From a virus, in the IMG/VR virus record IMGVR_UViG_3300043434_000210, positions 3,059-67,058 of that record: a stretch of 64,000 bases of DNA; one strand, 5' to 3'. This document shows positions 1-15,802 of this stretch, in pieces; positions within the stretch are counted from its first letter, which is position 1; each line of letters begins with the position of its first letter. The position numbers and the translations under genes were made by a program. Below the pieces are notes generated by a model. The model was not told the DNA's origin, made no database searches, and saw only the letters and a program-made list of their open reading frames with translations.

Positions 1-762
1 CCAGTTATTGGTGTCTGTCAACCAGTGGTTAACGGTGTAGCCTTCAGGCACAGTACCCATTGCTTTAATCGCGTTGATGTCGTTATCGGCAGTAGCCACA
101 CGCAATTCAGTGTCAAGCAAGCGCTTAGCAACGAACATTAATGCAGGTGGAATTACCAATTTACGAATCTTAGCAGCGATCAAAAGACCACGCTCGTCTG
201 TCCAACCAGCGATTTGAATAGCAGCATTTTCGATCGCTGTTTCGTTCAAATCAGTAGCGGTAGCTGGGCTGTTATAGTTAACACCACCATTTACCAATGG
301 ATGACCAACGCGTGAACCGCCAGAGTTAACGCCGAACAATGAAACACCGTCGCCACCTGGGTATGCGCCGTTGAAACCGTTGTTCAATACGTTTGCAGAT
401 TTAACTTGCTTTGTGTAAGCCATACCACGAGCCAAAGCTTTGGTGTAGCGAGCAGACAAGCTGTCGTACAAGTTATCTTCAATCGCTTCTTCAGTGATTG
501 AGAAACCCATTGCAATAGTTTCGTGTGTATAACGTGCAGTGAAAGCTTCCTGAGCATTGTCATAAGCCATTGCTGCACCTTCAGACTTAACTGGGGCGGC
601 ACCAAAGCCTGACAATTTTGTTTCTTCTTCAAAAGAACGCTCAGATTTCTCTGTTTCGTATAACTCTTTGTGCTCTTCACCGTAGCGCTTGTACTCTAAT
701 CCGAACAAGGCGTTAAGGCCAGGCAATAGCTCTTTTAGGAGCTGTGAACGTGAAATAGCCAT
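1..762 (-). CDS. Major capsid protein (5' part; runs off the window start)
   Basis: Not in the ORF track because it is open at the edge. Manual translation from ATG at 762 gives MAISRSQLLKELLPGLNALFGLEYKRYGEEHKELYETEKSERSFEEETKLSGFGAAPVKSEG...ARYTHETIAMGFSITEEAIEDNLY, which I recognise as the N-terminus of a common aquatic-phage MCP family. AAGGAG RBS lies upstream; follows the scaffold and portal genes. Confidence 0.9.
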   Translation of the reverse strand, partial: MAISRSQLLKELLPGLNALFGLEYKRYGEEHKELYETEKSERSFEEETKLSGFGAAPVKSEGAAMAYDNAQEAFTARYTHETIAMGFSITEEAIEDNLYDSLSARYTKALARGMAYTKQVKSANVLNNGFNGAYPGGDGVSLFGVNSGGSRVGHPLVNGGVNYNSPATATDLNETAIENAAIQIAGWTDERGLLIAAKIRKLVIPPALMFVAKRLLDTELRVATADNDINAIKAMGTVPEGYTVNHWLTDTNNW

Positions 763-776
763 GTTTAAGCTCCTTC

Positions 777-1388
777 TTAGTTAGTTGCGCCAGCTGCTTG
801 ATAATATGAATGTACGCCGAAGTTAAACTTCACGATACAGTCAGTCTTAGCATCACCTGGAGTTGACAAAGGACCAACAACTAGATCAACGATACGCACT
901 GCGTATGTTGAAGTGTTTGCTGGAGTTGTAGATTCCAACGCAATTGTTGAGTTACCTGTAGTAGTAGAACCACCAAAGTTAGTCAACTCAGCGTTTAAAC
1001 CGATTTGTGCACGTGTAATCGCGCCGTCAGCCTGAATCTGATATAACTGATCTGGATCTTCAACAACGCGGATAGCCACGTTAGTGTAACCAGCAGAAAT
1101 AGCGTTAGCAGGTAAGAAGTTTGAAAACACTTGATACTTCAAAACTGGATCTACATAGCTGCAACCTACTGCAACACCAACTAAACCACGAGTAGAAGTC
1201 GTAGGTGTAGCTGTCATAGCTTCAGGTTGACCACCAGCAGTAGCGCCAATAGTGACGACATCGCCTTTAAAAATAGCCGTTGCACTGTTTGTTGTCATCA
1301 CGTAATCGCGGATTGAGCCGCCAGTAAATGATTGACCACCAATCAGGTTAATAGGCACTAGTCCGTAAGGACTTGCAGTTGTTGCCAT
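777..1388 (-). CDS. Putative capsid decoration/minor head protein
   Basis: 203 aa, Ala/Thr/Gly-rich, directly upstream of MCP, GGAGG RBS. Function inferred from position. Confidence 0.6.
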   Translation of the reverse strand: MATTASPYGLVPINLIGGQSFTGGSIRDYVMTTNSATAIFKGDVVTIGATAGGQPEAMTATPTTSTRGLVGVAVGCSYVDPVLKYQVFSNFLPANAISAGYTNVAIRVVEDPDQLYQIQADGAITRAQIGLNAELTNFGGSTTTGNSTIALESTTPANTSTYAVRIVDLVVGPLSTPGDAKTDCIVKFNFGVHSYYQAAGATN

Positions 1389-1404
1389 TTAAACCTCCAA
1401 AAGT

Positions 1405-1851
1405 TTATTTTGAACCATTTCCAAACCCACCGCGACTGGTTGATGATTTTTTGTCAGCAAACAGAGGCATGCGGGCATCGTTGTTGCGCATGAAGCTGCT
1501 ATCAACAGACTCCATTTGAGCTCTGGCTTGGTTCTCGTAATATTCTTTACGAGCCAGTACACGTTCAGTCGGGGCCTTGCACAACATAAGACCACCAATC
1601 TCTACGTTACCGTTGGTATCACCTTGCACCATTAGCTCAGGGTGGTCAACAGCCTTAACCGGCACCCAGCCGTCACGGAACTTCTGAGAGACGTTCGTGG
1701 GGTTGGCTTGGCCTAAGATCGCGGTAGCAATCCACCTATAGGTAAAACCAGGCTCCGGGGTAGGGTCAGGTAAAGTTGACGCTGGTACATATTCATATCT
1801 TGTTTCTTGTGCACGAGTATCTTGCTCGCGATTTGTGCGGTTATTAGCCAT
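1405..1851 (-). CDS. Head-module hypothetical protein
   Basis: 148 aa with YRWI...GWVPV...GGLMLCKAP; coupled to the scaffold gene. Confidence 0.65.
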   Translation of the reverse strand: MANNRTNREQDTRAQETRYEYVPASTLPDPTPEPGFTYRWIATAILGQANPTNVSQKFRDGWVPVKAVDHPELMVQGDTNGNVEIGGLMLCKAPTERVLARKEYYENQARAQMESVDSSFMRNNDARMPLFADKKSSTSRGGFGNGSK

Positions 1852-2827
1852 TTCTGCTCTCCAATTTTAAAACTTCGTTTGCATACTGCTCATAGGACAA
1901 ATTGTATTTATCAGCAATTGCCTTTTGAGTAGGTGTTAGTTTGACAACCTTTTTAGCGCCAGTCGTTCTGGACGAAGGTGCCACAACAGTTGCAGGTTTT
2001 CTAGTTGGGGCAGATGCCTTACGGCTAGGCTCTTCCTCATTTGAGACATACATCTCAGGGAAGGTACGCTTAAGGCGAGCATCAATTTGCTCGAAATATT
2101 CGTCTTGCTGCGGGTTATACCCGTTCGCTACTAATTTCTGGTGCAGCCCGAGCGCAAAGGCTGTAACTTCTTCGTAACCTACTGCTCCAAACCACTGGTT
2201 TTTTGCCTGCCAGCGCAGTGTTCTTTCATCAAGTTTGGGAGCTTCTGGTTGCTCTGAACGTATTTGTACATCTACTTCACGTGTTTGTAAAGAGGTTGGT
2301 GCAAAATTTTTCGCACTTTCCAATTTCATCTTTGCGTCTGTCAAAGCTTCCTGCGCTTCAAGCAGTGCATCGTTGTCGTAACTATCGGCAGCTTCTTTGT
2401 ACTTTCTACGCGCCATCTCAAGCTCTGCTTCAGCTTTAGCCTGTAGCGTTTCTTTGTACGTAGCCTCACCGGTCTTTACGTATTCCTTGAGTTTGCGGTT
2501 CTCATCAAGGATCTGTTGTGTAAGACGCTCGAGTTCCTGCTTCTCTCGTAACGCAGCTTCTTTAGCACGGCGCTCATCGTGACGCGCGTGTGTCAATTCC
2601 TTGATTCGGGACTGAACGCCTTTTGAATAGCTTTCAATTTCCTCATCGGTAGGGTCTTCAACCTCACGGTCTAAAGGCTTGGCCTTACGGTCTCTTTCAG
2701 GGGTGTCGTCAATAATCTCTAATTCAACATCGGTTTCAGCCGAAGTATCAATGTCAATATCGACGTTTGTATCTAAGTTCGCGTCATCCTGTTCATCAGG
2801 AAACTTGAACGGCTCTAAATCTGCCAT
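1844..2827 (-). CDS. Putative capsid scaffolding protein
   Basis: 327 aa, acidic N-terminus, long coiled coil, W..KNQWFG motif, between portal and MCP. Confidence 0.7.
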   Translation of the reverse strand: MADLEPFKFPDEQDDANLDTNVDIDIDTSAETDVELEIIDDTPERDRKAKPLDREVEDPTDEEIESYSKGVQSRIKELTHARHDERRAKEAALREKQELERLTQQILDENRKLKEYVKTGEATYKETLQAKAEAELEMARRKYKEAADSYDNDALLEAQEALTDAKMKLESAKNFAPTSLQTREVDVQIRSEQPEAPKLDERTLRWQAKNQWFGAVGYEEVTAFALGLHQKLVANGYNPQQDEYFEQIDARLKRTFPEMYVSNEEEPSRKASAPTRKPATVVAPSSRTTGAKKVVKLTPTQKAIADKYNLSYEQYANEVLKLESRNG

Positions 2828-2840
2828 GGTTTATCTCCTA

Positions 2841-3275
2841 TTAAGCGCGGCTAATGCCACGAGGGTCTTGCACAACAGCCTCAACTTGATCGTCATTAAT
2901 CAAGCGAAACTCCTTACCGTGGATTTTGATGCGTGTCCCGGTATACGGACGCGTCAGAACAAAGTCACCTTCTTTACACCAGGGTCCTTCAGGGAACTTG
3001 TCTGCATCTTTGTAAGCCAACGGACCTGCTTGTAATACAAACAATACAGGCGACGTAATTTCTTCCGTGCGCATGGTTTCGTCTGCTTTCAAGATACCGC
3101 TGTCGTACTTGTCATCCACATCAATCAAAACACACAAAAGCTTCCAGCCGGTTGGCTGTGGAATTTGGCGAGCTTTGACTTGTGGTTCCTGTGCTTCTAC
3201 TTCTTCCGTCGGCACGTTTTTAACGCCCGGTGGCAGAATCAATTCTGACTCTGGTAGTGCGATGGTTTCACTCAT
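2841..3275 (-). CDS. groES: Co-chaperonin GroES-like protein
   Basis: P-T-G-W-K-L-L, SGIL mobile-loop region, GP.AY, KEGDFVL...YTGTRIKIHGKEFRLINDDQVEAVV match the Cpn10 pattern. Confidence 0.85.
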   Translation of the reverse strand: MSETIALPESELILPPGVKNVPTEEVEAQEPQVKARQIPQPTGWKLLCVLIDVDDKYDSGILKADETMRTEEITSPVLFVLQAGPLAYKDADKFPEGPWCKEGDFVLTRPYTGTRIKIHGKEFRLINDDQVEAVVQDPRGISRA

Positions 3276-3474
3276 CGTCGTCTTCCTTCATTTTCTCAGC
3301 GAGGTCAATTAAGTGGCGCTCTGCTAGGGCTAGACCTCGAATCACCCCACAGAGCTCTTTGTACTGCGATAAATCTGAGCACTGACCAGTCGCCACGTCG
3401 TCAGCGTAATTGTTCATGTCCTGACGAAGCTTTCCCCTCATAGCTTCGATAAAGTCCATCACTAATAAATCCAT
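3268..3474 (-). CDS. Small hypothetical protein
   Basis: 68 aa, YKELCGVIRGL; overlaps the groES start, typical of the gene after the portal. Confidence 0.65.
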   Translation of the reverse strand: MDLLVMDFIEAMRGKLRQDMNNYADDVATGQCSDLSQYKELCGVIRGLALAERHLIDLAEKMKEDDDE

Positions 3475-3492
3475 CGTTTGTTTACCTTTCTA

Positions 3493-5907
3493 TCAATCTT
3501 TTTTTGGTTTTGGCTCAGTTTTGCTGGCAGGTTGTCTCGCTTTCGCAACATCTCCTGCTAACTTGAAGCCTTGAACTACATCTGCTGCAGCCTTCTTGCT
3601 CTTCTCAAGCTCGAGTTTCTCGCGCTCAAGATCGATTTGGTCAGCCTTAGCAGCGGCTTCCATTGCCACTTTCTTCTCTTTAATGTCGACGTCTTTCTGT
3701 TTAATCGCCAACTCTTGCTGCTGCAACTGCAACACTGGGTCTTGTGCGTTCTGCTGAGCTTGCTGCTGAGCAACCATCGCTTGAGACTGTGCCAATACCT
3801 GCGGTGCAGCCATCGCCAACATCTTAGAAACTTCTTTCTCCAAGTCCTCTGGCATCTCTTGGTCAGGCAACGGCAACTGCACGCCCATCGCAGCCTCCAT
3901 CTTCTGACGGTATGCGTAACCAACGTGCTCGGCAATATGCGCAGACAAGGCCGCTTGAATAGCTTGCGCTTGCGGATTCTGCCCAATTAACTGCTGAACC
4001 AGCGGGTCTTGCATAGCTGACTGGTGAACGGCAATATGAGCCTCGTGGTCTTGATAAATGAATGCTTTGAGTGGTTTGCCCTTCAATGCGTTCATGTTTT
4101 CTGTCACGGGGTCTTTCGGCTTTTGATCGTCTTCCAAAGGGACCAACTTGTCAGCGTTCTTAATTCCCAAAACGTCCAGCATTTGCCTGTGTAATTGGGG
4201 TAAGTCGTAAATCTGTGGGGCGCTTTGTGCCAACTGAATAACGGCTTGGTACTGGACCACTCTTTGTGAAAGAGTGGCTGCGTTAGGGTCTGATACAGGC
4301 AACACATCGACCATTGAGTAGTCGGAACGTTTTGCTCGTGCACTGCCTTTTTCTGGCTCATAGTTATAGTCCTCGTCCGTGTAGTCAGCAATGATTTTGG
4401 CAAGCAGCTGCAACTCTTGTTTCAATGAGTAGTGCACGCGTGCCTGCACAGCAGACATCACTTTCAAAGTTCTTTCCAAAATAGCCAATGTCGTACCAAC
4501 AGGTGCGTTGGCTGACATATCGCTAATCTTCATGTCAGAAGTAGCCGCAAAGCGACGACCTTCTTCAACAATCTTGTCCATCAAACCAGCTAAAACTGAG
4601 CTTGGCTCCTTGTATGGAAGTGGCAAGATGTTGTCTCTAATATTGCCTGACCCAAGATCGACGTCTCTAAACTCACCCGGAGCGATTGGGGTATCGTCTC
4701 CCTTGATTCGCAGACCCCTAGCCTTAAGACCACCAGGTAGATTAGAAAGAGTACCGGCATCAACCAACTGACGCATAATGCTAGTCGCACTCTTGGCGAA
4801 GCCACCGATGAGATGGAAAAGACCAAAACCGTATGCGCCATAACCTGGAATGTACTGATAATGAACAAAATGCTGTCGCTTAAGTTTAAGTGGATCATCT
4901 TCGTTCCAGTTTCTGCGGATAGATAAAATATCATTAGTACCGCGCACCATTGTCACTACGTATGGCAACGCAATACCTGTCTTTTCACCATCTTCTTCGT
5001 CTTCAAAACCTGGCAAGTCCAAGTCAACGTGAATCTCATACACTTCAAAACGATCGTCGTAACTAGCGTTGAAGCCTGTTTCCTTGTCTTTCTTGTCCTG
5101 AATATCTGACTTGAACTTCTGCGGTTCGCCCAACTCTACGTCCATGTAGAAGCCGGCGTGCATCAAACGGTTCAACTCGTTTTTAGTTTTACGCATGATG
5201 TGTGTCACACGTGGCGAAGCCATAATCTCGCTTGTGCCGTAAGGAATAATGATGTCTTCAGCAGGAATAAACACAGACACCTGGCGACCTAGACCTGGGT
5301 CAAAGTACACTTTCTTGAACGCTGAACCGGCTGATGGCAAGTTCCACAACATGCGCTCGTGTTCATTACGGAACTCAGGCATTTTCTCTGTTAGTTGGTA
5401 GTTCATGTCTTCTTCAACACGTACCGCTGCCTGCTGTTTAGCTGGAGTCTCTTTACCAACAATCTTTGTGCGTACAGGCCCCTTGGCTGGGAATGTCTCC
5501 ATGATGGTTTCTGACTGGAAGCGTACAACTGCTTCCGTAATCATCGGGTGGAACACACCGCAAGCGCCATCCCATGGTTCTGTGCGCTCTTCAAACTTCA
5601 AGCCAAGGAGGGTGATACCGTCCTTGTACATATCTTCCCAATCTTTACGGGCAGCTTTGTCGTCGTTAATGCTGCCTTCCAAATCACCCGCCAACTCTTG
5701 CAAGTCGCCTGGGTTCATGTCTTCCGCTAAGTTCTTATTGAACTCATCTTCGGGCATCGCATCTGGGTCAATCTCAATCTCCATGCCATCCATACCGATG
5801 GTCACTGATTCTGGGTCCTCAATCTCGATCTCGATATCAGGTTCCTCGTTACCCACAATGGCCTCGAGTCCTTGTGGTGCCTGATACAGTCCTTTATCTA
5901 CTGGCAT
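3493..5907 (-). CDS. Portal protein
   Basis: 804 aa directly downstream of TerL; PWDGACGVFHP, GSAFKKVY and YGFGL motifs; Gln-rich C-terminal coiled-coil barrel as in podoviral portals. Confidence 0.88.
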   Translation of the reverse strand: MPVDKGLYQAPQGLEAIVGNEEPDIEIEIEDPESVTIGMDGMEIEIDPDAMPEDEFNKNLAEDMNPGDLQELAGDLEGSINDDKAARKDWEDMYKDGITLLGLKFEERTEPWDGACGVFHPMITEAVVRFQSETIMETFPAKGPVRTKIVGKETPAKQQAAVRVEEDMNYQLTEKMPEFRNEHERMLWNLPSAGSAFKKVYFDPGLGRQVSVFIPAEDIIIPYGTSEIMASPRVTHIMRKTKNELNRLMHAGFYMDVELGEPQKFKSDIQDKKDKETGFNASYDDRFEVYEIHVDLDLPGFEDEEDGEKTGIALPYVVTMVRGTNDILSIRRNWNEDDPLKLKRQHFVHYQYIPGYGAYGFGLFHLIGGFAKSATSIMRQLVDAGTLSNLPGGLKARGLRIKGDDTPIAPGEFRDVDLGSGNIRDNILPLPYKEPSSVLAGLMDKIVEEGRRFAATSDMKISDMSANAPVGTTLAILERTLKVMSAVQARVHYSLKQELQLLAKIIADYTDEDYNYEPEKGSARAKRSDYSMVDVLPVSDPNAATLSQRVVQYQAVIQLAQSAPQIYDLPQLHRQMLDVLGIKNADKLVPLEDDQKPKDPVTENMNALKGKPLKAFIYQDHEAHIAVHQSAMQDPLVQQLIGQNPQAQAIQAALSAHIAEHVGYAYRQKMEAAMGVQLPLPDQEMPEDLEKEVSKMLAMAAPQVLAQSQAMVAQQQAQQNAQDPVLQLQQQELAIKQKDVDIKEKKVAMEAAAKADQIDLEREKLELEKSKKAAADVVQGFKLAGDVAKARQPASKTEPKPKKD

Positions 5908-5916
5908 TTTCTATCC

Positions 5917-7464
5917 TTAATAATACGCCGCACGTCTGCGGCGGTAGGCCAATGGCTCGTCAGCCATATCGCTATCTAAGTTAATAAACCCGCCTTGGCG
6001 GTAGCGCAATAGCGCTTGTGTGCAAGTATCCACGAAGTCGTCGTGTTCGCCAACAGGAAACGCTGCAATTTCTTCAATTACGTCTCGTGCCCACCTCGTG
6101 TCTGGTGCCCAGACTTTGCCAGAAGCAAACAAGTCGCTGACCGCGTTGAGACGCGCAATCTTGTCGTTACCTCGGCTGGGGGTGAACTCTTGGACGGGGA
6201 TACCCATTCGCCGGAGCTCTTGTATAAGAGGACCACCGGCAGCTTTTTTCTCGACAATGAACGCATCAGGCTCCCACTCCTTGTAGTGTTTTAGTGCAAC
6301 TGTCTTGAGTTCTGGGAACGCCATCCTGTCCTTGAAGGCATCGAGGAGTATGAGGTTCGGACTGTTGTTATCCTCCTCGTTGTACCAGACTCCCCACGTG
6401 GTGCAAGCACTATAGTCACTTGTCGTTTTCGTCTCATGCGCCGTATCCCAACTCTGAATCACATAATCACACCGAGGCGGGTCTTCTGCATCCCACACTC
6501 GCCAATCTGACCGCTTCACCAACGCCGCACTGTCCGCCGTCGGCTTCTGCATGTACTGCGCGTTCCAATATCGTGGGTCTAGTGACGCCTTTGTGTTCTT
6601 TAGTGCAGCGAGCGGCCACTGAGCTGGCCACAGCGACTTCTCGTCCTCAGTGTCCTCGTGCAGGATGGCCGGCAACTCAACTATCTCCCATGGAATAGTG
6701 TCTGGGTTTTTAATCTGGTAGTCAATGAGCCGCCCTGTCAGGTCAAGTAGTGACCAACGCGTCATGATAATTATGATGGCACCGCCCGGCATCAGACGCT
6801 GTAACGGACCGGTCTGGAACCATGACCACGCCGTGTCGAACGCCAAGCGACTGTTACTCTTTACGTCTTGTTCAGAGTGTGGATCGTCAATGACAAACAA
6901 GTCAGCACCACGACCTGCAAGAGCGCCGCCCACACCAGCGGCATAATACTGTCCGCCTGCTCCAGTAGACCACTTACCAGCCGCCTTCTGGTCATCTGCC
7001 ACCATTGTTTCTGGAAAAACTTCTTTATATTCATCGCTATCAATCAAGTTACGTACCCGACGTCCAAAGTCTTCTGACAGAGACGCCGTATGTGTGCCCA
7101 TAATAATCTTTTTCTCAGGGTATTTACCTAAGAAGAACGCAGGAAACAGGTAAGAGCTGAACTCAGACTTACCCATACGCGGTGCTATGTTGATAATTAC
7201 GCGCTTTTTCTTGCCATCAATCACATCTTGGAAGATTTTTGCCAACCGTTTGTGGTGTGGACCCACTTTAAACCCCGGATACACCTTTCTTGCGAAGGCA
7301 ATCGGGTCTGTCTGTGCCATTTTTAGCTCGTGCCGACGCTCTTTCTCTTCCAAATCACTAAGAAACTTGAGTTTTTCTTCTTTTGTCATGTGTGGCAGGG
7401 CTCTTTGCGCCGCCATCGCCTCTTCTGGAGTCAGACAAGTGAAGTCTTTTAGCTCAGTTGTCAT
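5917..7464 (-). CDS. terL: Terminase large subunit
   Basis: Walker A APRMGKS, Walker B FVIDD, coupling motif MTRW, nuclease residues SWDTA / DYSA / IVEKKAAG / HDDFVD. Confidence 0.95.
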   Translation of the reverse strand: MTTELKDFTCLTPEEAMAAQRALPHMTKEEKLKFLSDLEEKERRHELKMAQTDPIAFARKVYPGFKVGPHHKRLAKIFQDVIDGKKKRVIINIAPRMGKSEFSSYLFPAFFLGKYPEKKIIMGTHTASLSEDFGRRVRNLIDSDEYKEVFPETMVADDQKAAGKWSTGAGGQYYAAGVGGALAGRGADLFVIDDPHSEQDVKSNSRLAFDTAWSWFQTGPLQRLMPGGAIIIIMTRWSLLDLTGRLIDYQIKNPDTIPWEIVELPAILHEDTEDEKSLWPAQWPLAALKNTKASLDPRYWNAQYMQKPTADSAALVKRSDWRVWDAEDPPRCDYVIQSWDTAHETKTTSDYSACTTWGVWYNEEDNNSPNLILLDAFKDRMAFPELKTVALKHYKEWEPDAFIVEKKAAGGPLIQELRRMGIPVQEFTPSRGNDKIARLNAVSDLFASGKVWAPDTRWARDVIEEIAAFPVGEHDDFVDTCTQALLRYRQGGFINLDSDMADEPLAYRRRRAAYY

Positions 7465-8068
7465 CTTCTGCCGGTGGGTTGTCTTGCAAATCTTTGTCTA
7501 AATCAATAGCCTCTACATCAACAACGTCGGCCTTGCCCATATATTTGCCAAGCTTCTCGCGGATTCGCGCCTCTAGCTCTTCATCAGTAACTTCTGCCTT
7601 TTTAACCTCAACGCGCTCAGTAAACAGGGCCACTTCCGTGACTTTACCCAACATATCTAGCGCCTTGAGACGTATTCTGGCATCAGGATGGTCGGTCTCT
7701 TTGACAATTTTTGCCACCGCCATGGATCTAAGCTCTTCGGCCTGCTGGACAAACTGCCACTGATATTGAGAGAGCATCGCTACGCTTGAACGTACCTCTT
7801 CCGGTAGCTGCATCTGCAAGATTTTGTCTTTAGCGTCGGGTGCCTGGGTTACTAATGACTGGAATGTATCTGAAACTTTTTGTTGTTGTGCTGCCGTAAG
7901 AATCGCTTCGTCTTCTTTGGCAATCTCGGCTAGCCACTCGGTGGTGCCTATCTGTGAATTCAATGTTTCTGCTGCGGATAGTTTTGCTAACGGAACAAAG
8001 TCGCCTACGCCAGACTCTATGTCTGGCACATAATCTGCTGCCGCTGCTAAGACCAAATGATCTAACAA
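7454..8068 (-). CDS. Probable terminase small subunit
   Basis: 204 aa overlapping the TerL start; helical RLKALDMLGK...LFTER segment. Start codon uncertain. Confidence 0.6.
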   Translation of the reverse strand: MLDHLVLAAAADYVPDIESGVGDFVPLAKLSAAETLNSQIGTTEWLAEIAKEDEAILTAAQQQKVSDTFQSLVTQAPDAKDKILQMQLPEEVRSSVAMLSQYQWQFVQQAEELRSMAVAKIVKETDHPDARIRLKALDMLGKVTEVALFTERVEVKKAEVTDEELEARIREKLGKYMGKADVVDVEAIDLDKDLQDNPPAEDDN

Positions 8069-8122
8069 ACTACCTCCGCTGTTGCGCCGTGGGTGTGGCG
8101 TATGTCAGGGAGTATACACACA

Positions 8123-8152
8123 ATTCTAAAAAAGAAAACCCCTCCCTCGCAA
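8123..8152 (-). promoter_or_regulatory. Possible sigma70-type promoter for the packaging/head operon
   Basis: Minus strand TTGCGA (8152-8147), 18 bp spacer, TAGAAT (8128-8123). An alternative -10 TATACT lies at 8116-8111. Confidence 0.35.
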
Positions 8153-8155
8153 GCT

Positions 8156-8191
8156 CAAAAAGAAAACCCCCCGGTAAGGGGCCGGGGGGTT
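8156..8191 (-). terminator. Intrinsic terminator ending the predicted sRNA
   Basis: 10-bp perfect inverted repeat AACCCCCCGG (8165-8174) / CCGGGGGGTT (8182-8191), 7-nt loop, followed on the minus strand by a U-rich tract (TTTTCTTTTT). Confidence 0.8.
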
Positions 8192-8263
8192 AAGGGGTGG
8201 TTTCGCTCTCACACTCAACCAAGGAGACGTGCGCCAGACAAACGAAAGGAAAAGCCGACGCAC
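8157..8263 (-). ncRNA. Predicted ~105-nt trans-acting antisense sRNA complementary to early-gene RBS leaders
   Basis: Bounded by a promoter (8299-8270) and a terminator. The 5' hairpin GUGCGUCGGC-UUUUCCUUUCGUUU-GUCUGGCGCAC begins at the expected +1, and its G-U pairs work only on this strand. The loop complements the leaders at 10985, 12457, 15844 and 18644. Confidence 0.7.
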
Positions 8264-8330: not shown

Positions 8331-8494
8331 TAGCTGTCAAGAATTAGACAAGGTGGGGTGGAATTTTTACAAAATTTGACATGGAATTATTTTGCGGTTG
8401 TGGAATAGTGATCTATGGTCAATGCCATGCCATGCAGTTTTCGTGGGGGTCGGTGGTGGGTGGGGTCAAAACAGACGGCTTTTAACCTACGGAG

Positions 8495-8503
8495 TGGTAA
8501 AAT
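8495..8503 (+). promoter_or_regulatory. Extended -10 promoter for the early arm
   Basis: TGGTAAAAT (TGn plus TAAAAT) about 85 nt upstream of the first rightward gene; no good -35. Confidence 0.5.
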
Positions 8504-8548
8504 TTAATCATTGGAAATCGGGGAGAAATCTCCCCAAACCAATCTGAC

Positions 8549-8574
8549 GCCCACACAGTTTGTGGGCTTTTTTT
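8549..8574 (+). terminator. Intrinsic terminator/attenuator in the early leader
   Basis: GCCCACA-cagtt-TGTGGGC followed by T7, immediately before the RBS of the first early gene. Confidence 0.75.
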
Positions 8575-8587
8575 ATTGGAGTTTATT

Positions 8588-8989
8588 ATGAACAAGACTT
8601 TTACATACACACAATTTGCCTACGCTGTAGGTGCAAACGAACGCTTGACATACGAAGCGAGCAAGGTATTCCACGAGGAATACATGGCAAACGAGGATAA
8701 GGCTTTCAGAGCAAGAATGAGAGCCGATTGGGTTGTGAGCTATGTCGCTGGCAATCTCAAGCTCTCGCAAGCCAAAGCAATCAAGGTATGCGAGATGACT
8801 AGGGTAGAACGCAACGCCCTAGACACCGAGCTTGAGAAGGCTGTGAACCGAGCAGGCAAGCAGTTCGGCTACCATGTTGTGCGAGCCGAGCAAGGCACGA
8901 GCAAGCAAACTGACCTAGTCGCACAGGCTCTTGCACTATACGCAAAGATGTCAGGCAGTCAAAAGCGTAGCTTCAAGGCTCAACTTTGA
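8588..8989 (+). CDS. First early gene, hypothetical protein
   Basis: ORF 8576-8989; GGAG RBS places the start at ATG 8588 (MNKTFTY...). Confidence 0.75.
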   Translation: MNKTFTYTQFAYAVGANERLTYEASKVFHEEYMANEDKAFRARMRADWVVSYVAGNLKLSQAKAIKVCEMTRVERNALDTELEKAVNRAGKQFGYHVVRAEQGTSKQTDLVAQALALYAKMSGSQKRSFKAQL

Positions 8990-9014
8990 TATCAGGGAGA
9001 TTTCTCCCCAACAA

Positions 9015-9081
9015 GTTTGACAGAATTCCTGTGTGGTCGTGCAAGCGAGAGCTTTCATGGCTATTCGGTTTTCTGTCAAAC
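9015..9081 (+). other. Long intergenic RNA stem-loop (RNase III-site-like)
   Basis: 11-bp perfect outer stem GTTTGACAGAA/TTCTGTCAAAC, G-U-rich inner stem GUGGUCGUG/CAUGGCUAU, capped by AAGC-GAGA-GCUU (GNRA tetraloop). Confidence 0.7.
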
Positions 9082-9104
9082 ATCTCTCACAAAAGGAATC
9101 AATC

Positions 9105-9266
9105 ATGGAATCACTCGCACAAAAACTACGCAAAGCGTATGACCTAATCGCTACTGCGGATACATCAGACATAGATGCCTACTATCTAGCCGTTGAAGAA
9201 GCACAGGGCTACATAGCCGAGGCATTAGATATGGCAGACAACTTCACCAACGAATACAGGAGCTAA
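9105..9266 (+). CDS. Small acidic hypothetical protein
   Basis: ORF 9033-9266; AAGGA RBS favours ATG 9105 (MESLAQKLRKAY...). Confidence 0.65.
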   Translation: MESLAQKLRKAYDLIATADTSDIDAYYLAVEEAQGYIAEALDMADNFTNEYRS

Positions 9267-9268
9267 CC

Positions 9269-9385
9269 ATGCATCAACGAACCACAATCCAAATCATGTG
9301 GGCGAACCGCCACACGACAGACGGCAAAAGACTACACAGGTTCACACGCAAGGCAATCAACCAATCTCACAGGAGAATCAAATGA
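9269..9385 (+). CDS. Small basic hypothetical protein (38 aa, below the track cutoff)
   Basis: AGGAG RBS; MHQRTTIQIMWANRH...RRIK; its stop overlaps the next start (ATGA). Confidence 0.45.
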   Translation: MHQRTTIQIMWANRHTTDGKRLHRFTRKAINQSHRRIK

Positions 9386-9615
9386 AATCATTTATCGTAG
9401 CCCACTTCCACAATGGCGTAATCATTGAGTTCAAGCGTAAGCCCAAGGCTCAAACACCACAACCACATACACTCAATGTGGCAACCAACGCAGTCAAGAA
9501 ACTAAACGCCCTACTCGGGGAGGTTTCTCCCCAAGACCATTGGGCTTGCGTATCCATAGACAAGCTCGCCGAGCTAAACAAGAGGGGTTTATGGCAACAA
9601 GTTGCTGAGAAGTGA
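9382..9615 (+). CDS. Hypothetical protein
   Basis: AGGAGA RBS before ATG 9382 (MKSFIVAHF...); contains a palindrome copy read as GEVSPQ. Confidence 0.6.
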   Translation: MKSFIVAHFHNGVIIEFKRKPKAQTPQPHTLNVATNAVKKLNALLGEVSPQDHWACVSIDKLAELNKRGLWQQVAEK

Positions 9616-9626
9616 TTTTGGACACT

Positions 9627-9928
9627 TGTCCGCTTATTATTATGCGTAGACACAACCTAATCACCCTGCGAGCCTTTCAGTATATGGCACTGTCCACTAT
9701 CACACATATATTATTATATATAATAGATATAGATATATATAAATAAGTATATGTTTAAGTAGACATAGGTCAGCATTGAAAACCTTTTTAGGTTTAAAAA
9801 TTCTGAAAAAAGGTAAGATATGTATACACAACTTGACCAAACCCCTATAAACTATAGGCTCGCAGGGCGTCTACATCTGTGCGTCCTCTTCATCTCAATA
9901 AGCGGACAGAAAGGTAATTTAGTGGACA
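9627..9928. other. Putative replication origin: AT-rich core flanked by nested inverted repeats
   Basis: Nearly pure A/T run at about 9706-9760; 12-bp inverted repeats 9627-9638/9897-9908 and 9664-9675/9856-9867; 9-bp inverted repeat 9691-9699/9920-9928. Confidence 0.55.
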
Positions 9929-10620
9929 CTTTTTATACTGACGGGGAGGTTTCTCCCCAAGATGATTGGGTTATCACACCTGTATCCAAACACCTGACTC
10001 ATGCAATGTGCGTCAAGTGTGGTGAGATTAAACCTATTGGGCGATTCAAACACAGGCTCACGCTTGAAGAAACTGCCAAGCGATTAGATAAGAACATAGC
10101 CACGACACGCATGGAAGTAAACAGTAAATACTGCACGCCATGTAGGAGAAAAGAGATACCACGCAAGAGCCTACGACAGAAGAGTCGTGATGAAATTAAG
10201 CGTGCTGTTGCGTATGGTGATTTGAATATCGTGCAAGCCAAGATAGAGATAGCCAAGCGTGATGAGGATATGAACCTCAAGAAATCAGCAGGCGTCAAGC
10301 GTAGGTGGGAACGCATACGCAACGAGAAAGCCAAGGCATACGGCAAGCAACTACAAGAACAGGTCAATCGCAAGGCGTCCTACTTTCATGCTAACAAGCA
10401 CAACGGGGCAGATACTACACTCATCACCTTCGCACAGACCGACTACACCTATGCTCGCCTAGCCAAACAAACCTTAATGAGAGGCGTAGCTAGTGGGGAG
10501 GTTTCTCCCCAAACGACCAAGCTAGAAGACGCATACACATACGAGCAACGACAAGAACTACAACGGCTCAAGGCACAGATACCACATGAAATACTAACCA
10601 AGCAAAGGAGAAGGAAGTGA
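9820..10620 (+). CDS. Basic hypothetical protein with CxxC...CxxC (true start probably downstream)
   Basis: CVKC...CTPC zinc-binding pairs, Lys/Arg-rich. The N-terminal part overlaps the origin-like inverted repeats. Confidence 0.6.
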   Translation: MYTQLDQTPINYRLAGRLHLCVLFISISGQKGNLVDTFYTDGEVSPQDDWVITPVSKHLTHAMCVKCGEIKPIGRFKHRLTLEETAKRLDKNIATTRMEVNSKYCTPCRRKEIPRKSLRQKSRDEIKRAVAYGDLNIVQAKIEIAKRDEDMNLKKSAGVKRRWERIRNEKAKAYGKQLQEQVNRKASYFHANKHNGADTTLITFAQTDYTYARLAKQTLMRGVASGEVSPQTTKLEDAYTYEQRQELQRLKAQIPHEILTKQRRRK

Positions 10621-10714
10621 GCAAGCAAAAAGTAGATTGGCTATTAGTTACATTGGTGTTCGGTGGGTTATACCTGCTCGGACATTTGATCGCGTTCATT
10701 TACAGGGAGGTCGT

Positions 10715-10930
10715 ATGTTGCTAGATACAAAGACAGGCAAGCCCTTGTCCGAGGGCATGGAGATACAACGCAAGGACTATCGTGGCTTCAAGAAACGATA
10801 CAGGGTTCACGAGATACTGCCTAATGCGGTGGTTTTAATTTTAATCGGAGAATCAGCTCTCGCTAACCTATATCTCACAGTCCCTATGGCTGAGCTATCT
10901 CAATATAGCTTGGGCGTAACGTTGTTTTAA
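10715..10930 (+). CDS. Hypothetical protein
   Basis: ORF 10637-10930; GGAGG RBS favours the ATG at 10715 (MLLDTKTG...). Confidence 0.55.
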   Translation: MLLDTKTGKPLSEGMEIQRKDYRGFKKRYRVHEILPNAVVLILIGESALANLYLTVPMAELSQYSLGVTLF

Positions 10931-11002
10931 CGGGGAGATTTCTCCCCAAGATGTTTCACAAAGCAGTAGACAGTTAACCACAACCAAACGAAAGGAATCA
11001 TT

Positions 11003-12424
11003 ATGTTAAGGTTAATAGATAGATATCGTGAGCTCAGAGAGCACACAGGGAACGACAGGCCTATGTCTAACCCACGTTTTGTATCTGCCATGCGTGACGA
11101 GATACGCACTAACTTGGCAGGCGGTCCTCATGCTTGGCTCAAGAATCGTGCACCATCAATGTATAGATATGGTGATGTGCGTGAGCAGTTGGAGTATGGG
11201 TTCAATGGTCATGTGGGTAGAATGACTGAGTGGGTGCATCAGCAGAGAGCCAATCGCAAAGTGTTCGGTGGGTTCATGGGCGATGCGATACGCCAAGGGG
11301 ATTCAGACAGGGCGTTGGCGTTACTCAATGACCACACCAGTATCCGTGACGGCTCACGTGTTGATTGGACAGACCTGCTCAATGATAAGTTCACAGGCTA
11401 CTACCACTCATGCGAGGACTGCAACACCATCACGAGTGAAGACGATGGTAGCACCACCAGCTACGACAATTGGGTGTGTCAGGACTGTCTTGACAACAAC
11501 TACAGATGGTCAGACCGAGCTGATGGATACGTGACCAATGATGACTACGAAGATGAAGAGGAGGAGGACGAAGACAACGGCGTCATCGGTAGTTACCACC
11601 ACAGTAAGCGTCATGTGTGCCACATACCTAGCAAGTATGACCACATAGATAAGCCTGCCGTTCTGCTTGGGCTTGAGCTAGAGATGGAGTGTAGCGACAG
11701 TTATACCCGTAGCGACAAGGCTCAAGAACTGTATGACAAGATACACAAATACAACGTCATCAATGGCAGGTCATATCCATACGCGTTCTTTGAGGAGGAC
11801 GGCTCGCTTAACTATGGCTTCGAGATGGTGACTAGCTACACAGGTCTTGATGTCCATGCCGAGCAGTTGTTGGTGTTCAAGGATAACCCTGTGCGTGGGC
11901 TACGCAGTCACGACACTAGCAGTTGTGGTCTACACGTTCACGTCAGTCGTGCAGGTATGACGACATTCCATGCGTGTAAGTTGGCGTTCTTCATTCACGA
12001 TAGCGGTAACCAACGCTTATTGAGAGCCGTAGCACGTAGGTCTAACAGTCGCCATGCCAAGATGGTCAACAAGAAAGCGGATTCACAATGGATACGCAAT
12101 GCCAAGGTTGATGGTATCCAACGCTTGAATGACGACAGGTATGAGGCGGTCAACTTTCAGAATGGCAACACCGTTGAGTTCCGTCTGTTCAAGGGCACGC
12201 TACGCTACGAGTCAATCATGGCGTGCTTGGAGTTCTCATACATCACATGGTTCTTCGCTCGTGATATGGGTGTGACTGAGCTGACCGAGGATAAGTTCCT
12301 TGAGTATATCTGTCAGCCAAGCAAGCTCAAGCACACTAAGTTCTTGCGTGACTACTTGCGGTCTAAGAACTTCAGCCTACCTATCAAGGACAGACAACCC
12401 AAGCAAGATGCAGTTGAAGTCTAA
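11003..12424 (+). CDS. Putative amidoligase (glutamine synthetase-like COOH-NH2 ligase) with N-terminal Zn ribbon
   Basis: GLELEME, EEDGSL, GFEMVT, SCGLHVHVS, RYEAVN and TVEFRLFKGT motifs; CEDC/CQDC pair and an acidic linker upstream. Confidence 0.85.
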   Translation: MLRLIDRYRELREHTGNDRPMSNPRFVSAMRDEIRTNLAGGPHAWLKNRAPSMYRYGDVREQLEYGFNGHVGRMTEWVHQQRANRKVFGGFMGDAIRQGDSDRALALLNDHTSIRDGSRVDWTDLLNDKFTGYYHSCEDCNTITSEDDGSTTSYDNWVCQDCLDNNYRWSDRADGYVTNDDYEDEEEEDEDNGVIGSYHHSKRHVCHIPSKYDHIDKPAVLLGLELEMECSDSYTRSDKAQELYDKIHKYNVINGRSYPYAFFEEDGSLNYGFEMVTSYTGLDVHAEQLLVFKDNPVRGLRSHDTSSCGLHVHVSRAGMTTFHACKLAFFIHDSGNQRLLRAVARRSNSRHAKMVNKKADSQWIRNAKVDGIQRLNDDRYEAVNFQNGNTVEFRLFKGTLRYESIMACLEFSYITWFFARDMGVTELTEDKFLEYICQPSKLKHTKFLRDYLRSKNFSLPIKDRQPKQDAVEV

Positions 12425-12475
12425 CGGGGAGGTTTCTCCCCAACACGTTCTCACAAACAAACGAAAGGAAATACT

Positions 12476-13543
12476 ATGTGCTTATTAGTTACACAACCTG
12501 CTAACGCCCCTGCTCTCACAGACGCATGGCTCTCTGACTTCTACTCAGCTAACGCTGACGGCGTGGGTGTGATGTATGCCCAAGACGGCGAGCTTGTCGT
12601 TGAGAAGATACTGCCTGTTGATGAGAAGGACTTCATTCACTTCTACCGCAACCACATTGAGGGTAAGGAATGTGCGTTCCACCTACGCATGAAGACGCAT
12701 GGCAATATTGACATGGAGAACTGCCACCCATACGAGGTGTTGAATCATAGCGAGCATGGCATCAGCTTATGGCTCATGCACAACGGCGTGCTGTCTACGG
12801 GTAATGACGCTGACACTACTAAGTCAGACACATGGCACTACATTCGTGACTACCTCCGCCCTATGCTGACTGACAACCCTGAGTTTGCGTTTCACCCTGC
12901 GTTCGCAGACATTGTCGGTAGCCACATCGGTAGCAGTAACAAGTTCGTGCTGATGGACAACAACGGCAGACAAGTCACAGTCAACGAAGATGCAGGCGTC
13001 TATTGGGGTGGGCTATGGTTATCCAATACCTACGCATGGTCAGCAAGTAAGTCAGCTACCAAGGACTTCAACCCTGACTACGAGATCGCAGTTGAGCAGG
13101 TCAATGAGACGCCGACCAAGTATACGTATTCATACAAAGGCGGTTATGGGTATGGCACGTATGGCAAGGGGTATGGCTACTCAGGCACATGGGACAACGA
13201 TGACTACTATGACGACCCTGTCGGTGGCTACGTTACATCTAAGGTAGGTCAGAACTACGCTGATGAGATAGCGGTGCTTGAGATGGAGGTTGATGATGTC
13301 AGCACGCAGTTTGGTATCGCAGGTATGACACGTGCTGAACGATTCAGTCGCCGTCAGATATGGAACTTCATTGATAAGTTTGGCTTTGACTCATGGCTTG
13401 ACGTTGCATATATGTTGATTGATACGGACATTGATGAGGACGCATACATCAAGCTGATGTCTGACTTTGCGTATGCACGTGAGATGTTTCCGTTCCTGAT
13501 TAAAGAAGAGCAGAAGCTTGCTCGTGGTGAGTGGTTGAACTAA
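12476..13543 (+). CDS. Class II (Ntn) glutamine amidotransferase-like protein
   Basis: N-terminal Met-Cys, NADGVG, HLRMKTHG, NCHPY, HNGVL and SDT motifs; Tyr/Gly-rich linker and acidic C-terminal domain. Confidence 0.88.
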   Translation: MCLLVTQPANAPALTDAWLSDFYSANADGVGVMYAQDGELVVEKILPVDEKDFIHFYRNHIEGKECAFHLRMKTHGNIDMENCHPYEVLNHSEHGISLWLMHNGVLSTGNDADTTKSDTWHYIRDYLRPMLTDNPEFAFHPAFADIVGSHIGSSNKFVLMDNNGRQVTVNEDAGVYWGGLWLSNTYAWSASKSATKDFNPDYEIAVEQVNETPTKYTYSYKGGYGYGTYGKGYGYSGTWDNDDYYDDPVGGYVTSKVGQNYADEIAVLEMEVDDVSTQFGIAGMTRAERFSRRQIWNFIDKFGFDSWLDVAYMLIDTDIDEDAYIKLMSDFAYAREMFPFLIKEEQKLARGEWLN

Positions 13544-13555
13544 GAAAGGAGTTGT

Positions 13556-13717
13556 ATGTTTGAAAACGATGGCAATACCAAGTTTTTCTTGGACAGCGAG
13601 GAGGTGACGTGCGAGAAGTTCAATGACTTCTACTACGCCCACGATACGGGGTGGTGTGAAGACGTTGACGAGTATGGCACGCTACGCCTAACTATTTTTA
13701 CTGATGATGCAAACTAA
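13556..13717 (+). CDS. Small acidic hypothetical protein (53 aa, below the track cutoff)
   Basis: AAGGAG RBS; ATG 13556 to TAA 13717 fills the gap between neighbours. Confidence 0.55.
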   Translation: MFENDGNTKFFLDSEEVTCEKFNDFYYAHDTGWCEDVDEYGTLRLTIFTDDAN

Positions 13718-13732
13718 CTGAAAGGAAATTGT

Positions 13733-13963
13733 ATGACTAACGCAGAAGTATTCTTAATCGCATGGGCGGTAGTGGCTACCTTGTTGGCGGTGTATTACCA
13801 ACAGAAACACAAACAAGTTGAGATGAAGTATGACAACACAGGCAACCTACTATGTGATGTTGTGGTGGGTGATGTCAAGCCTAGAAAGAACAACGAGGGC
13901 TTTTGGGTTGTAGAGAATAGCCACACACGCATCGTATTTAAACGCAGAGAAATGGAGCTTTAA
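13733..13963 (+). CDS. Small membrane-anchored hypothetical protein
   Basis: N-terminal hydrophobic helix VFLIAWAVVATLLAVYY; GAAAGGAAA RBS. Confidence 0.65.
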   Translation: MTNAEVFLIAWAVVATLLAVYYQQKHKQVEMKYDNTGNLLCDVVVGDVKPRKNNEGFWVVENSHTRIVFKRREMEL

Positions 13964-13964
13964 T

Positions 13965-14399
13965 ATGGATACATCAACACTAGTAACAGGCGTATCAGGT
14001 GCAGTATACGCACCCGTGGATACATCACCGCAAGCAACCGCAGTCAATCAAGCAATGTCTTTGATTCAGGAGGGGCTGGCTCAACTTACTACACTCATCA
14101 ACTCTTTAGACAAACGCATCGGGGAGAATCCTCCCCAAAATGTAGATTTGCAGACAACTGTGGATTTGGTGTTGCATCAGTCTACTTGGTTTGATAACAA
14201 GGTCTCTGAGTTTCTCAAGAGCAAAGACGACCTCATTGAGAACGTCATTGAAGATGTTGTGCGTGACCGCATGGATACTGCCGTCAATGACTGGTTCAAC
14301 AACGAGTTCCAACTGAGTGACTACGTAGATATTGAAGACTTAGTCAAAGAAGTTGTGGAGGAGAAGTTACGCCGAGCAACAATAACTGTGGATATATAG
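13965..14399 (+). CDS. Hypothetical protein
   Basis: 144 aa, coupled to its neighbours; contains the last palindrome copy (GENPPQ). Confidence 0.65.
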   Translation: MDTSTLVTGVSGAVYAPVDTSPQATAVNQAMSLIQEGLAQLTTLINSLDKRIGENPPQNVDLQTTVDLVLHQSTWFDNKVSEFLKSKDDLIENVIEDVVRDRMDTAVNDWFNNEFQLSDYVDIEDLVKEVVEEKLRRATITVDI

Positions 14400-15773: not shown

Positions 15774-15802
15774 TTGTCAAACATTTGATTCGGTCGTATT
15801 AT
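15774..15802 (+). promoter_or_regulatory. sigma70-type promoter of the AAA/vWA operon
   Basis: TTGTCA, 17 bp spacer, TATTAT; followed by the 12-bp direct repeat TATTAGTAGTAA at 15800 and 15820. Confidence 0.7.

Follow-up and report, generated by a model that had tools for sequence, protein, structure and literature searches.

A palindrome array in the early operon of a freshwater phage, its phage-specific equivalents in relatives, and the first early protein as candidate binder

The 64,000-nt stretch of viral DNA analysed here (the window; bases 3059-67058 of the 67,058-nt virus record IMGVR_UViG_3300043434_000210) carries, at the beginning of its rightward early arm, an array of eight short palindromes of the form GGGGAG-N4-CTCCCC that flank and follow gene 1, the gene for a small basic protein, gp1. 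The rightward genes (8588-31891) begin with small open reading frames (ORFs) of unknown function and continue with amidoligase-like, glutamine amidotransferase (GATase)-like, AAA ATPase, VWA-like, PolA, SNF2 helicase and primase genes. Leftward genes fill 1-8068 and 32053-64000 and include those for the portal, terminase, tail fibres, endolysin and a 2875-aa polyvalent virion protein with an LPD38 domain. The phage is a freshwater one and virulent-looking, and a comparison of 80 ORF translations with PHROGs and 29 with Pfam gave no match to an RNA polymerase, a sigma factor, an integrase or a known repressor family. The features of the locus are as follows.

8495..8503, plus strand: putative early promoter with the extended -10 sequence TGgTAAAAT, by our reading of the sequence, with a start at about 8510
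8520..8537, plus strand: copy 1 of the palindrome, GGGGAG-AAAT-CTCCCC-AA, in the gene 1 leader
8549..8576, plus strand: intrinsic terminator with a 7-bp GC-rich stem, a 5-nt loop and T7 (RNA fold z = -3.0)
8588..8989, plus strand: gene 1, encoding the 133-aa basic protein gp1, candidate binder of the palindromes by its co-variation with the motif
8994..9011, plus strand: copy 2, AGGGAG-ATTT-CTCCCC-AA, 4 nt past the stop codon of gene 1 (ORF 8576-8989)
9034..9073, plus strand: stem-loop and T-rich tract behind copy 2, orthologous to the intrinsic terminator found behind gene 1 and copy 2 in relatives
9517..9534, plus strand: copy 3, within ORF 9382-9615, read as GEVSPQ
9943..9960, plus strand: copy 4, near the start of ORF 9922-10620, read as GEVSPQ
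10495..10512, plus strand: copy 5, within ORF 9922-10620, read as GEVSPQ
10932..10949, plus strand: copy 6, 1 nt past the stop codon of ORF 10637-10930 and 53 nt 5' of the amidoligase-like gene
12426..12443, plus strand: copy 7, 1 nt past the stop codon of ORF 11003-12424 and 32 nt 5' of the next start
14121..14138, plus strand: copy 8, the last of the array, within ORF 13965-14399, read as GENPPQ

A pattern scan of the window found seven exact matches to GGGGAG-N4-CTCCCC (at 8520, 9517, 9943, 10495, 10932, 12426 and 14121), against a mean of 0.00 in 100 dinucleotide-preserving shuffles, and the eighth site, at 8994, appears when mismatches are permitted, having A instead of the first G. The mismatch-tolerant scan returned the same eight co-oriented plus-strand sites that an initial annotation had picked out from the letters of the sequence (shuffle mean 0.13); its minus-strand rows are these same sites, read as palindromes with one or two mismatches. 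All of the window's copies have the form of 6-bp arms around a 4-nt centre. They are also directional, as had been proposed: AA follows every one of the eight, the base on the 5' side is C in seven and T in one, and this asymmetry of the flanks follows the direction of transcription whatever way the centre points. CTCCCCAA occurs eight times in the window, every time within a palindrome site, and TTGGGGAG occurs twice (19760 and 57024), neither time within one. The earlier statement that no copy lies elsewhere holds for the entire 67,058-nt record, which contains only the seven exact copies and no occurrence of a backwards control pattern.

The eight sites spread across 5.6 kb. Distances from copy to copy are 474, 523, 426, 552, 437, 1494 and 1695 nt, so that the interval of 426-552 bp first given for the leading six is correct on re-measurement, as are the three copies placed 1-4 nt behind stop codons (8994 at 4 nt, 10932 and 12426 at 1 nt each) and the four in ORFs that share one frame. 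These last (9517, 9943, 10495 and 14121) all take GGG as a codon and read GEVSPQ three times and GENPPQ once. A T-run follows none of the eight copies, which argues that they are not terminators themselves. A consensus scan and our own reading found no sigma-70-like hexamers with copies 2-8, and the copies have no boxA-like element in common, the shared flank being only C...AA.

Copy 1 lies at about +10 to +25 of the predicted early start. The tool's consensus scan missed the -10 sequence at 8495-8503 and listed a weaker site at 8366-8393. Eight relatives' rows show the promoter region (L201, L206, L216, L188, L168, L172, L196 and L164), and in these the first hairpin has a -10-like hexamer (TAAAAT, TAATAT, TAAACT, TAACAT or TACACT) 16-46 nt ahead of it, the hexamer often being preceded by TG at a distance of one base. 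The conservation of a -10 before copy 1 argues that host RNA polymerase most likely starts the early operon and that copy 1 is transcribed. The terminator that the initial annotation had noted close behind copy 1 was recovered as a stem at 8549-8567 with a T-run, 13 nt downstream, and is the only clear plus-strand intrinsic terminator of the early arm in the scan. The stem-loop behind copy 2 has 10-14 bp in the relatives, with arms that vary by lineage yet pair, and is followed by UGUUUCnUUUC; RNAalifold applied past gene 1 predicted copy 2 only, and this terminator was found by single-sequence folds. With the promoter and copy 1 before it and copy 2 and a terminator after it, gene 1 has the layout of an immediate-early unit bounded by its own sites.

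Several other conserved blocks were seen around this unit. A G-rich block, GGGGGTCGGTGGTGGGTGGGGTCAA (8444-8469), precedes copy 1 by about 50 nt. Relatives of every motif type have it in near-identical form, GGTGGGGGATGGGTGGGGTCAA, some 100 nt ahead of their first hairpin, and it may be a G-quadruplex or a site connected with packaging or with the genome ends. Further upstream, the block TGTGGAATAGTGATCTAT (8399-8417) is kept in relatives as (g)tggaacagtgtttata and is, by eye, a poor match to both sigma-70 and sigma-54. Most of L201, L206, L216, L188, L168 and L164 have, between the -10 and copy 1, a leader element agaggyATCGGttgggacaagcctagCCGAT with its own inverted repeat; the window is without it and has the terminator behind copy 1 in its place. 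At 9064-9085 the T-rich tract behind copy 2 runs into a lineage-conserved GTTTCnTTTCYTGTCCAA (TTCGGTTTTCTGTCAAAC in the window), a region conserved beyond what a U-tract needs.

Relatives were collected by a TerL search of viral contigs, which confirmed at least 598, and the best 80 (77-87% identical) were used. The window's exact motif type is arrayed in only 3 of these 80 loci (L197, L203 and L216), with one stray match in L188. The initial annotation had offered absence of the motif from the early region of close relatives as grounds for doubting the array; such absence is literally what is found, but it misleads, since in the relatives the motif is replaced and not lost. A search for repeated perfect hairpins showed that most loci carry 3-8 hairpins with identical cores upstream of the terminase genes, amounting to 204 copies in 46 of 81 sources, five loci having been exchanged for whole records (G001, one of the 46, entered through a chance family in that script and was later excluded). 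Loci with 3 kb or more of early arm all have an array (26 of 26); the figure is 42 of 47 when the threshold is 1.5 kb and 45 of 62 when it is 0.5 kb. In six genomes that are whole or nearly so, the phage's own hairpin family is restricted to the early arm, with G001 as an exception in that the script's top family there was the scattered chance one; its GCGGACA copies are in the early arm. The window's own motif recurs in G004 with the same C...A(A) flanks. An exact-motif scan of viral contigs gave chiefly single chance matches and was useful for finding G004 and a few relatives.

The arrays of the relatives share an architecture and differ in their letters. There are about 18 core and centre types, of which eight have a 3-nt, seven a 4-nt and three a 5-nt centre, and the commonest stem/loop forms among de-duplicated copies are 7/3 (39), 6/4 (35) and 6/3 (24). 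In close relatives the copies occupy orthologous positions and the flanks of individual copies are alike, yet the arms are each genome's own. This extends into coding sequence: one protein is conserved around its in-ORF site (KAEWDKVL..RYEINNA..GMRYGG and LAFSEYIR.MEKL), and the site itself is recoded to suit the motif of each phage, as GGEKVSPE, GGELVPQ or GGEKSPQ, with small changes in length. That protein, conserved in the clade of L201, has its recoded site at the same relative place as copy 5 of the window; the window's flanks there show no recognisable likeness. For sites at orthologous places to change in concert, a phage-encoded factor that reads their sequence is needed. A selfish repeat of the REP or MITE kind does not fit the orthologous positions or the concerted change, which reaches even into a conserved ORF. 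ORFs enclose 49 of 156 copies, compared to 71% of random positions. Of 98 intergenic copies, 38 have the next start 15-34 nt past their end, a number expected to be about 8, and 36 of 107 begin 0-5 nt past a stop, although short distances of both kinds could come from very short intergenic spacers alone. The array is subject to selection, does not extend beyond the early operon and has phage-specific equivalents in relatives. Among the 40 listed of 534 sequence differences between the contigs of four sequencing runs, one of which may be RNA, and the window, none falls within a copy, and no claim is drawn from this; no ends could be read from these contigs.

The ORFs of L201 between positions 1500 and 11000 were compared with their counterparts in six members of a clade with 80-90% DNA identity and three motifs (GGGGAGA-3, GGGGAA-4 and GGGGAG-4). 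Relative to L201, TerL is 86-96% identical in this clade, TerS 79-94% and the protein with the in-ORF site 80-89%. For gene 1 the values are 90% and 70% in the phages with the same motif and 46-52% in those with a different one, and gene 1 is the only ORF among those compared that tracks the motif. Its N-terminal approximately 115 residues follow the motif, with a 7-residue insertion in the phages that have 7+3+7 sites, and its last approximately 40 residues are exchanged independently of it. TerS was rejected as the binder, being 93% identical between L201 and L206, whose motifs differ, and the ORFs at 8018-8257 and 7675-7827 of L201, also conserved between different-motif phages, are out for the same reason.

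A wider test took the first ORF past the conserved G-rich anchor in all sources, of which 38 had gene 1, a motif and TerL (L204 and L215 were excluded because the wrong ORF had been picked). For pairs with TerL at least 90% identical, the product of gene-1 identity and coverage has a median of 75 and a minimum of 53 when the motif is the same (n = 36), and a median of 0 and a maximum of 69 when it differs (n = 178), the pairs not being independent of each other; the pair at 69 has motifs that differ at one stem position. Two of the binders suggested by the initial annotation thus part company. The first early protein (8588) is retained as the candidate, and the helix-turn-helix (HTH) protein at 28756 is not, being 50% identical to its counterpart in the same-motif G004 and 64% to that of a different-motif genome. 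No protein stood out as closer between the same-motif genomes G000 and G004 than between different-motif genomes. Positional orthologues of gene 1 fall into two N-domain superfamilies, with 32+3 and 14 members, that share only the C-terminal approximately 30 residues (hhalign E 4.6e-5; window residues 105-133).

All 51 gene-1 proteins are basic, with isoelectric points of 8.5-10.3 (9.6 for that of the window). A large protein collection held 23 homologues of gp1, none with a Pfam domain; Pfam searches with 26 and 25 gene-1 members gave only scattered matches with E of at least 0.01, the gp1 profile matched nothing among PDB sequences, and in BFVD one uncharacterised phage protein matches (E 1.6e-3). 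The model of gp1, from a 26-row alignment, is all-helical, with a predicted local distance difference test score (pLDDT) of 89.1 and a predicted template modelling score (pTM) of 0.70. Prediction of a homodimer gave a score of 0.80 against 0.01 for the best control, a mark that in a benchmark was reached by 20 of 30 same-chain-pair proteins and 1 of 23 single-chain proteins; two of three runs gave 0.80 and one 0.06, at least 60% of the contacts agree, and the partner pLDDT is at least 79. The modelling thus supports a gp1 homodimer. Its predicted interface leaves residues 59-83 free, and there, at residues 61-78, we read an HTH-like stretch with an invariant R75 and near-invariant A64 and R72. 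For the second gene-1 family, the MarR-type and KH identities suggested by structure searches were both too weak to use.

Whether the sites would be read as duplex DNA or as RNA bears on several of the possible mechanisms. The sites are built as 7+3+7 or 6+4+6, and about one helical turn separates the two arms. In 82 of 385 within-genome pairs of copies the centres are identical, and in 72 they are reverse complements of each other; the corresponding numbers when centres are permuted across genomes are 20 and 17, and each of two mock relations yields 3. Flipping the centre leaves the duplex unchanged but alters the RNA loop, which favours duplex DNA read by a dimer. The centre is highly variable in some families; palindromy extends through it in 14 of 50 distinct 3-nt centres, the chance level, and in 11 of 22 4-nt centres (p = 0.01), and the closing mismatches (C..A in 46 and T..G in 24 of 160) show a Y...R preference only. 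Eleven copies have a single mismatch, which is a sense-strand G.U in one, A.C in seven and another mismatch in three.

These data also bear on a signal at the RNA level, in which gp1 would bind or cut hairpins of the early mRNA for processing, protection of 5' or 3' ends, or translational control, as in the RNase III punctuation of T7 early mRNA or the operators of coat proteins. Such a role would suit the copies directly past stop codons and those 5-12 nt before Shine-Dalgarno sequences, as well as the fact that every copy lies in the transcribed direction of one operon. KH domains, moreover, make up 11 of the 50 listed VIA rows for the second gene-1 superfamily (Z 3.9-5.1). Set against this, a Z near 5 is below the tool's own meaningful level, the short distances may reflect very short spacers, sense G.U wobble is rare, and the centre is reverse-complemented about as often as it is unchanged. 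We regard this explanation as improbable.

Hairpins of this shape also recall the early promoters of phages N4 and LUZ7, one of the analogues raised by the initial annotation. Passages of the papers on these phages describe a conserved 3-nt loop, a stem of at least 4 bp in LUZ7 and a 7-bp stem in the N4 promoter P2_7a (PMC4496689, PMC9163698), and nine LUZ7 early starts, some of them within genes (PMC4496689/PMC9163698). On this model extruded hairpins would be read by a co-injected phage polymerase, hidden for example in the 2875-aa protein, transcripts would start about 11-14 nt past the hairpin centre, and transcription would also draw the first 5.6 kb into the cell. The resemblance is real in that the sites here are short, GC-rich and multi-copy hairpins of the early region only, in most relatives with a loop of 3 nt on a 7-bp stem; for many copies a start codon lies 15-34 nt past the end, single-mismatch copies keep a template-strand G.T (7 versus 1), and the giant protein has a 1,400-aa lineage-specific middle. 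However, no polymerase family was found via PHROGs, Pfam or PDB sequences: the giant protein has no relative among PDB sequences, PHROGs and Pfam gave only LPD38 and C-terminal families for it, and its middle has tape-measure-like features according to Atlas (score 0.87-0.89, a lead only). A conserved host-type sigma-70 -10 precedes the array. N4 polymerase reads fixed loop bases (template positions -11 and -10), whereas here neither the identity nor the orientation of the loop is fixed, with 72 reversed and 82 unchanged centres among the 385 pairs. Furthermore, the motif tracks an early gene that itself must be expressed first. An N4-type system is therefore very unlikely here, and of the initial proposal it is the more general part that stands, namely a protein-binding or hairpin array on the first-expressed DNA, supported by selection, confinement to the early operon and phage-specific equivalents.

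The reading that we favour takes the palindromes as private recognition sites of gp1 (8588-8989), the first early gene product. Host RNA polymerase would begin at the sigma-70 promoter upstream of copy 1 and make gp1 first, with copy 2 and an intrinsic terminator closing off gene 1 in relatives. As a small basic protein and probably a symmetric dimer, gp1 would occupy the 16-17-bp palindromes as double-stranded DNA, at sites that punctuate the early operon at gene boundaries and within a few ORFs, and its binding would control the passage of host polymerase through the operon. The action would be negative, in the manner of Cro or of stoperators, with autoregulation at copy 1 and roadblocks further down, and the outcome would be a self-limiting pulse of early expression, possibly with exclusion of relatives of the same specificity. 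That the palindromes are the cognate sites of gp1 and regulate the early operon seems probable to us; to the whole reading, with a gp1 dimer acting negatively on duplex DNA, we give a probability of roughly 0.45.

A number of observations weigh against this reading. The gp1 model resembles no known DNA-binding fold in searches against PDB (best Foldseek E 2; best VIA-wide Z 4.6), and the HTH at residues 61-78 is our own reading only. The model for the second superfamily (pLDDT 84.8) gives weak rows both ways, to MarR-type DNA binders (E 0.6-4) and to KH domains. The asymmetry of the flanks, with C before and AA after in seven of eight sites, is unexpected for a symmetric dimer, and most first copies are at about +25 to +40 of the predicted start, which is a long way out for an operator of the classical kind. 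The window has a terminator separating copy 1 from gene 1; in 16 of the 16 lineages folded the conserved terminator follows copy 2 at 6-25 nt; and 21 of 156 relatives' copies have a downstream T-run, compared to 8 with a mirrored A-run. The co-variation has its own weak points. Among phages with the window's motif, gp1 likeness is only 29-35%, and a further pair with a shared motif has a score of 27. The close-clade test covers only the genes on the short contigs, and, because gene 1 lies between copies 1 and 2, linkage inside a mosaic module might account for some of the co-variation.

Several of these points are what one would expect of antitermination of the N or Q kind, in which immediate-early gp1 would load onto host polymerase at the sites, through the nascent RNA hairpin in the manner of lambda boxB or through DNA in the manner of Q. 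Polymerase would then read through the terminator after gene 1, and here also the one before it, into the delayed-early genes, and the repeated sites would reload a poorly processive factor. The order promoter, site, gene 1, site, terminator, gene 2 is like that of pL, nutL, N and tL1 in phage lambda, the pairing of protein and hairpin is phage-specific in both, and the first copies sit in a transcribed leader. Of 53 distinct terminator-like hairpins in the early arms that do not belong to the array families, 25 begin 0-29 nt past a family hairpin, where 1.4 are expected. Most of the 25 represent one orthologous site, that after copy 2, and hence few independent events; copy 1 and its terminator make a second case in the window. 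The protein is modular as well, with a variable specificity domain and a C-terminal module of about 30 residues common to two unrelated superfamilies, and a module shared across unrelated N-domains is expected if it touches a constant host target.

The analogy has its limits. The order is reversed, terminator then hairpin, in L144 and L155, and in the window no terminator follows copies 3-8. Unlike the two sites of the lambda system, the arrays have 3-8, no boxA-like element is common to the copies, and the loop is variable and flips. N is arginine-rich and largely unfolded, whereas gp1 is predicted to be a folded (pLDDT 89), helical and dimeric protein, and the Pfam family N36 was hit by one of 26 gene-1 members, at E 0.12. 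Antitermination is nearly as likely as negative action and fits the layout and the modular protein at least as well; taken as a complete account it is a possible one, held with considerable doubt.

Finally, gp1 might act on DNA outside transcription, its binding to the leading 5.6 kb aiding entry, protection of ends or organisation of replication. Second-step transfer in phage T5 needs early DNA-binding proteins. The array here adjoins the non-coding region between the divergent arms, and a possible origin lies between copies 3 and 4, in the form of nested inverted repeats at 9627-9908. However, an entry or protection role does not explain why copies track gene boundaries, and the record is circular-looking and does not give the physical genome ends: its first 100 bases recur 134 nt before its end, and this 134-nt terminal overlap marks a circular-looking assembly. 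Such a role strikes us as quite unlikely. The inverted repeats deserve description in their own right. They pair 9627-9638 with 9897-9908, 9664-9675 with 9856-9867 and 9691-9722 with 9734-9765, around an A+T-rich, repeat-laden centre in a non-coding gap, and may be a replication origin or a large structured RNA; a comparable inverted pair of about 130 nt occurs in relatives (L201, 8261-8393 with 8493-8621).

Among known systems, lambda Cro and Mu Ner are small dimers encoded by the first gene of an early operon, and the operators of Cro are 17 bp long. On the favoured reading gp1 would resemble Cro in being a small, first-gene regulator (a dimer by prediction) with two-fold symmetric sites of roughly 17 bp and a specificity that differs between related phages. 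The operators of Cro lie across promoters, whereas in the array copy 1 alone has a promoter nearby, and no Cro likeness of gp1 emerged from the sequence profile or fold searches. The nearest parallel appears to be with the stoperators of Cluster A mycobacteriophages such as L5 and Bxb1. Like the array, these are many copies of a short site in transcribed regions and at gene boundaries, oriented with transcription, and their phage-specific consensus changes with the cognate protein, as that of the array does with the candidate gp1. Published work on stoperators describes syntenic sites that differ between relatives (PMC6550527, PMC9283540). Stoperators are 13-bp asymmetric sites, bound by a monomer and present in 20-30 copies genome-wide in temperate phages. 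In contrast, the window's array has 16-17-bp palindromes with a candidate binder that is predicted to be dimeric and comes from the first early gene; it keeps to the early operon, and PHROGs and Pfam gave no match to an integrase or a known repressor family.

A further comparison is with the start-associated sequences (SAS) and extended SAS (ESAS) of Cluster K mycobacteriophages. These too are conserved repeats, partly inverted, that stand just before the starts of a subset of genes, the same genes across relatives (PMC3203893). An SAS is a 13-bp asymmetric sequence that includes the ribosome-binding site, and ESAS arms have 17 bp and variable spacers; unlike the window array, these elements have no known cognate protein and extend beyond an early operon. 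The 'conserved inverted repeats' of phiC31 are another analogue. A regulator with a multi-site array is thus known as a kind, and what sets the present case apart is that the protein families have no PDB, Pfam or PHROG match and that diversification is unusually fast. A literature search on this phage group, with supplements outside its reach, found no description of such an array. The nearest cultured phages are only about 50% identical in TerL, and a nucleotide search of the early arm against cultured phages gave no match. No such array was present in the seen parts of two distant cultured relatives with a different gene order, HTVC027P (41 of 58 kb) and DSL-LC04 (34 of 62 kb).

More speculatively, the clade may use an undescribed class of regulator, with a swappable nucleic-acid specificity domain in at least two unrelated folds unmatched in PDB and a shared 30-aa effector module. 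Such a regulator might load at palindromic punctuation sites and switch the elongation of host polymerase, with protein and sites diversifying together into many mutually orthogonal specificities among near-identical phages; for lytic phages this would be the equivalent of immunity groups, and it would amount to a naturally occurring library of protein-site pairs that are orthogonal to each other. We offer all of this tentatively and with more doubt than confidence.

Other features of the window can be mentioned briefly. About 165 nt at 9099-9264 are missing from contigs of two runs that belong to different studies, which removes the 53-aa ORF at 9105-9266, and this small early ORF is hence a presence/absence polymorphism. 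At 11003-13543 an Amidoligase_2-like gene (E 3.8e-7) adjoins a weak class-II glutamine amidotransferase-like gene (E 0.004, under the Pfam cut-off), a pairing met in phage peptide-modification systems. The best plus-strand sigma-70-like match (TTGTCA-17-TATTAT, 10/12) is at 15774-15802, just 5' of the AAA ATPase gene and 1.6 kb past the last palindrome, and may open the next transcription unit. The giant virion protein (32053-40680, minus strand) is tripartite: residues 1-300 and 1750-2875 are common to more than 100 large proteins, and the middle (about residues 350-1750, some 1,400 aa) is lineage-specific, common to only about 21 close relatives, and looks like a swappable cargo region. Parts of the stretch were found in runs labelled freshwater, lagoon, lake-water and aquaculture metagenome, from 13 studies, and none of the runs listed is catalogued as RNA.

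If gp1 does bind the palindromes, these phages would hold about 18 natural specificities of one small protein-site system, few changes apart and set in genomes that are otherwise 80-95% identical, which would provide a clean case for a regulator and its sites changing together. One lesson for comparative work is that where sites co-evolve with their reader the search for a given motif in relatives fails, and the architecture, not the letters, must be sought. For the biology of this widespread group of lake-metagenome phages, with its at least 598 TerL relatives, the finding would assign a role to the first gene and to the early operon, in a region whose genes have so far been without known function. 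The system could then also serve as a source of orthogonal parts.

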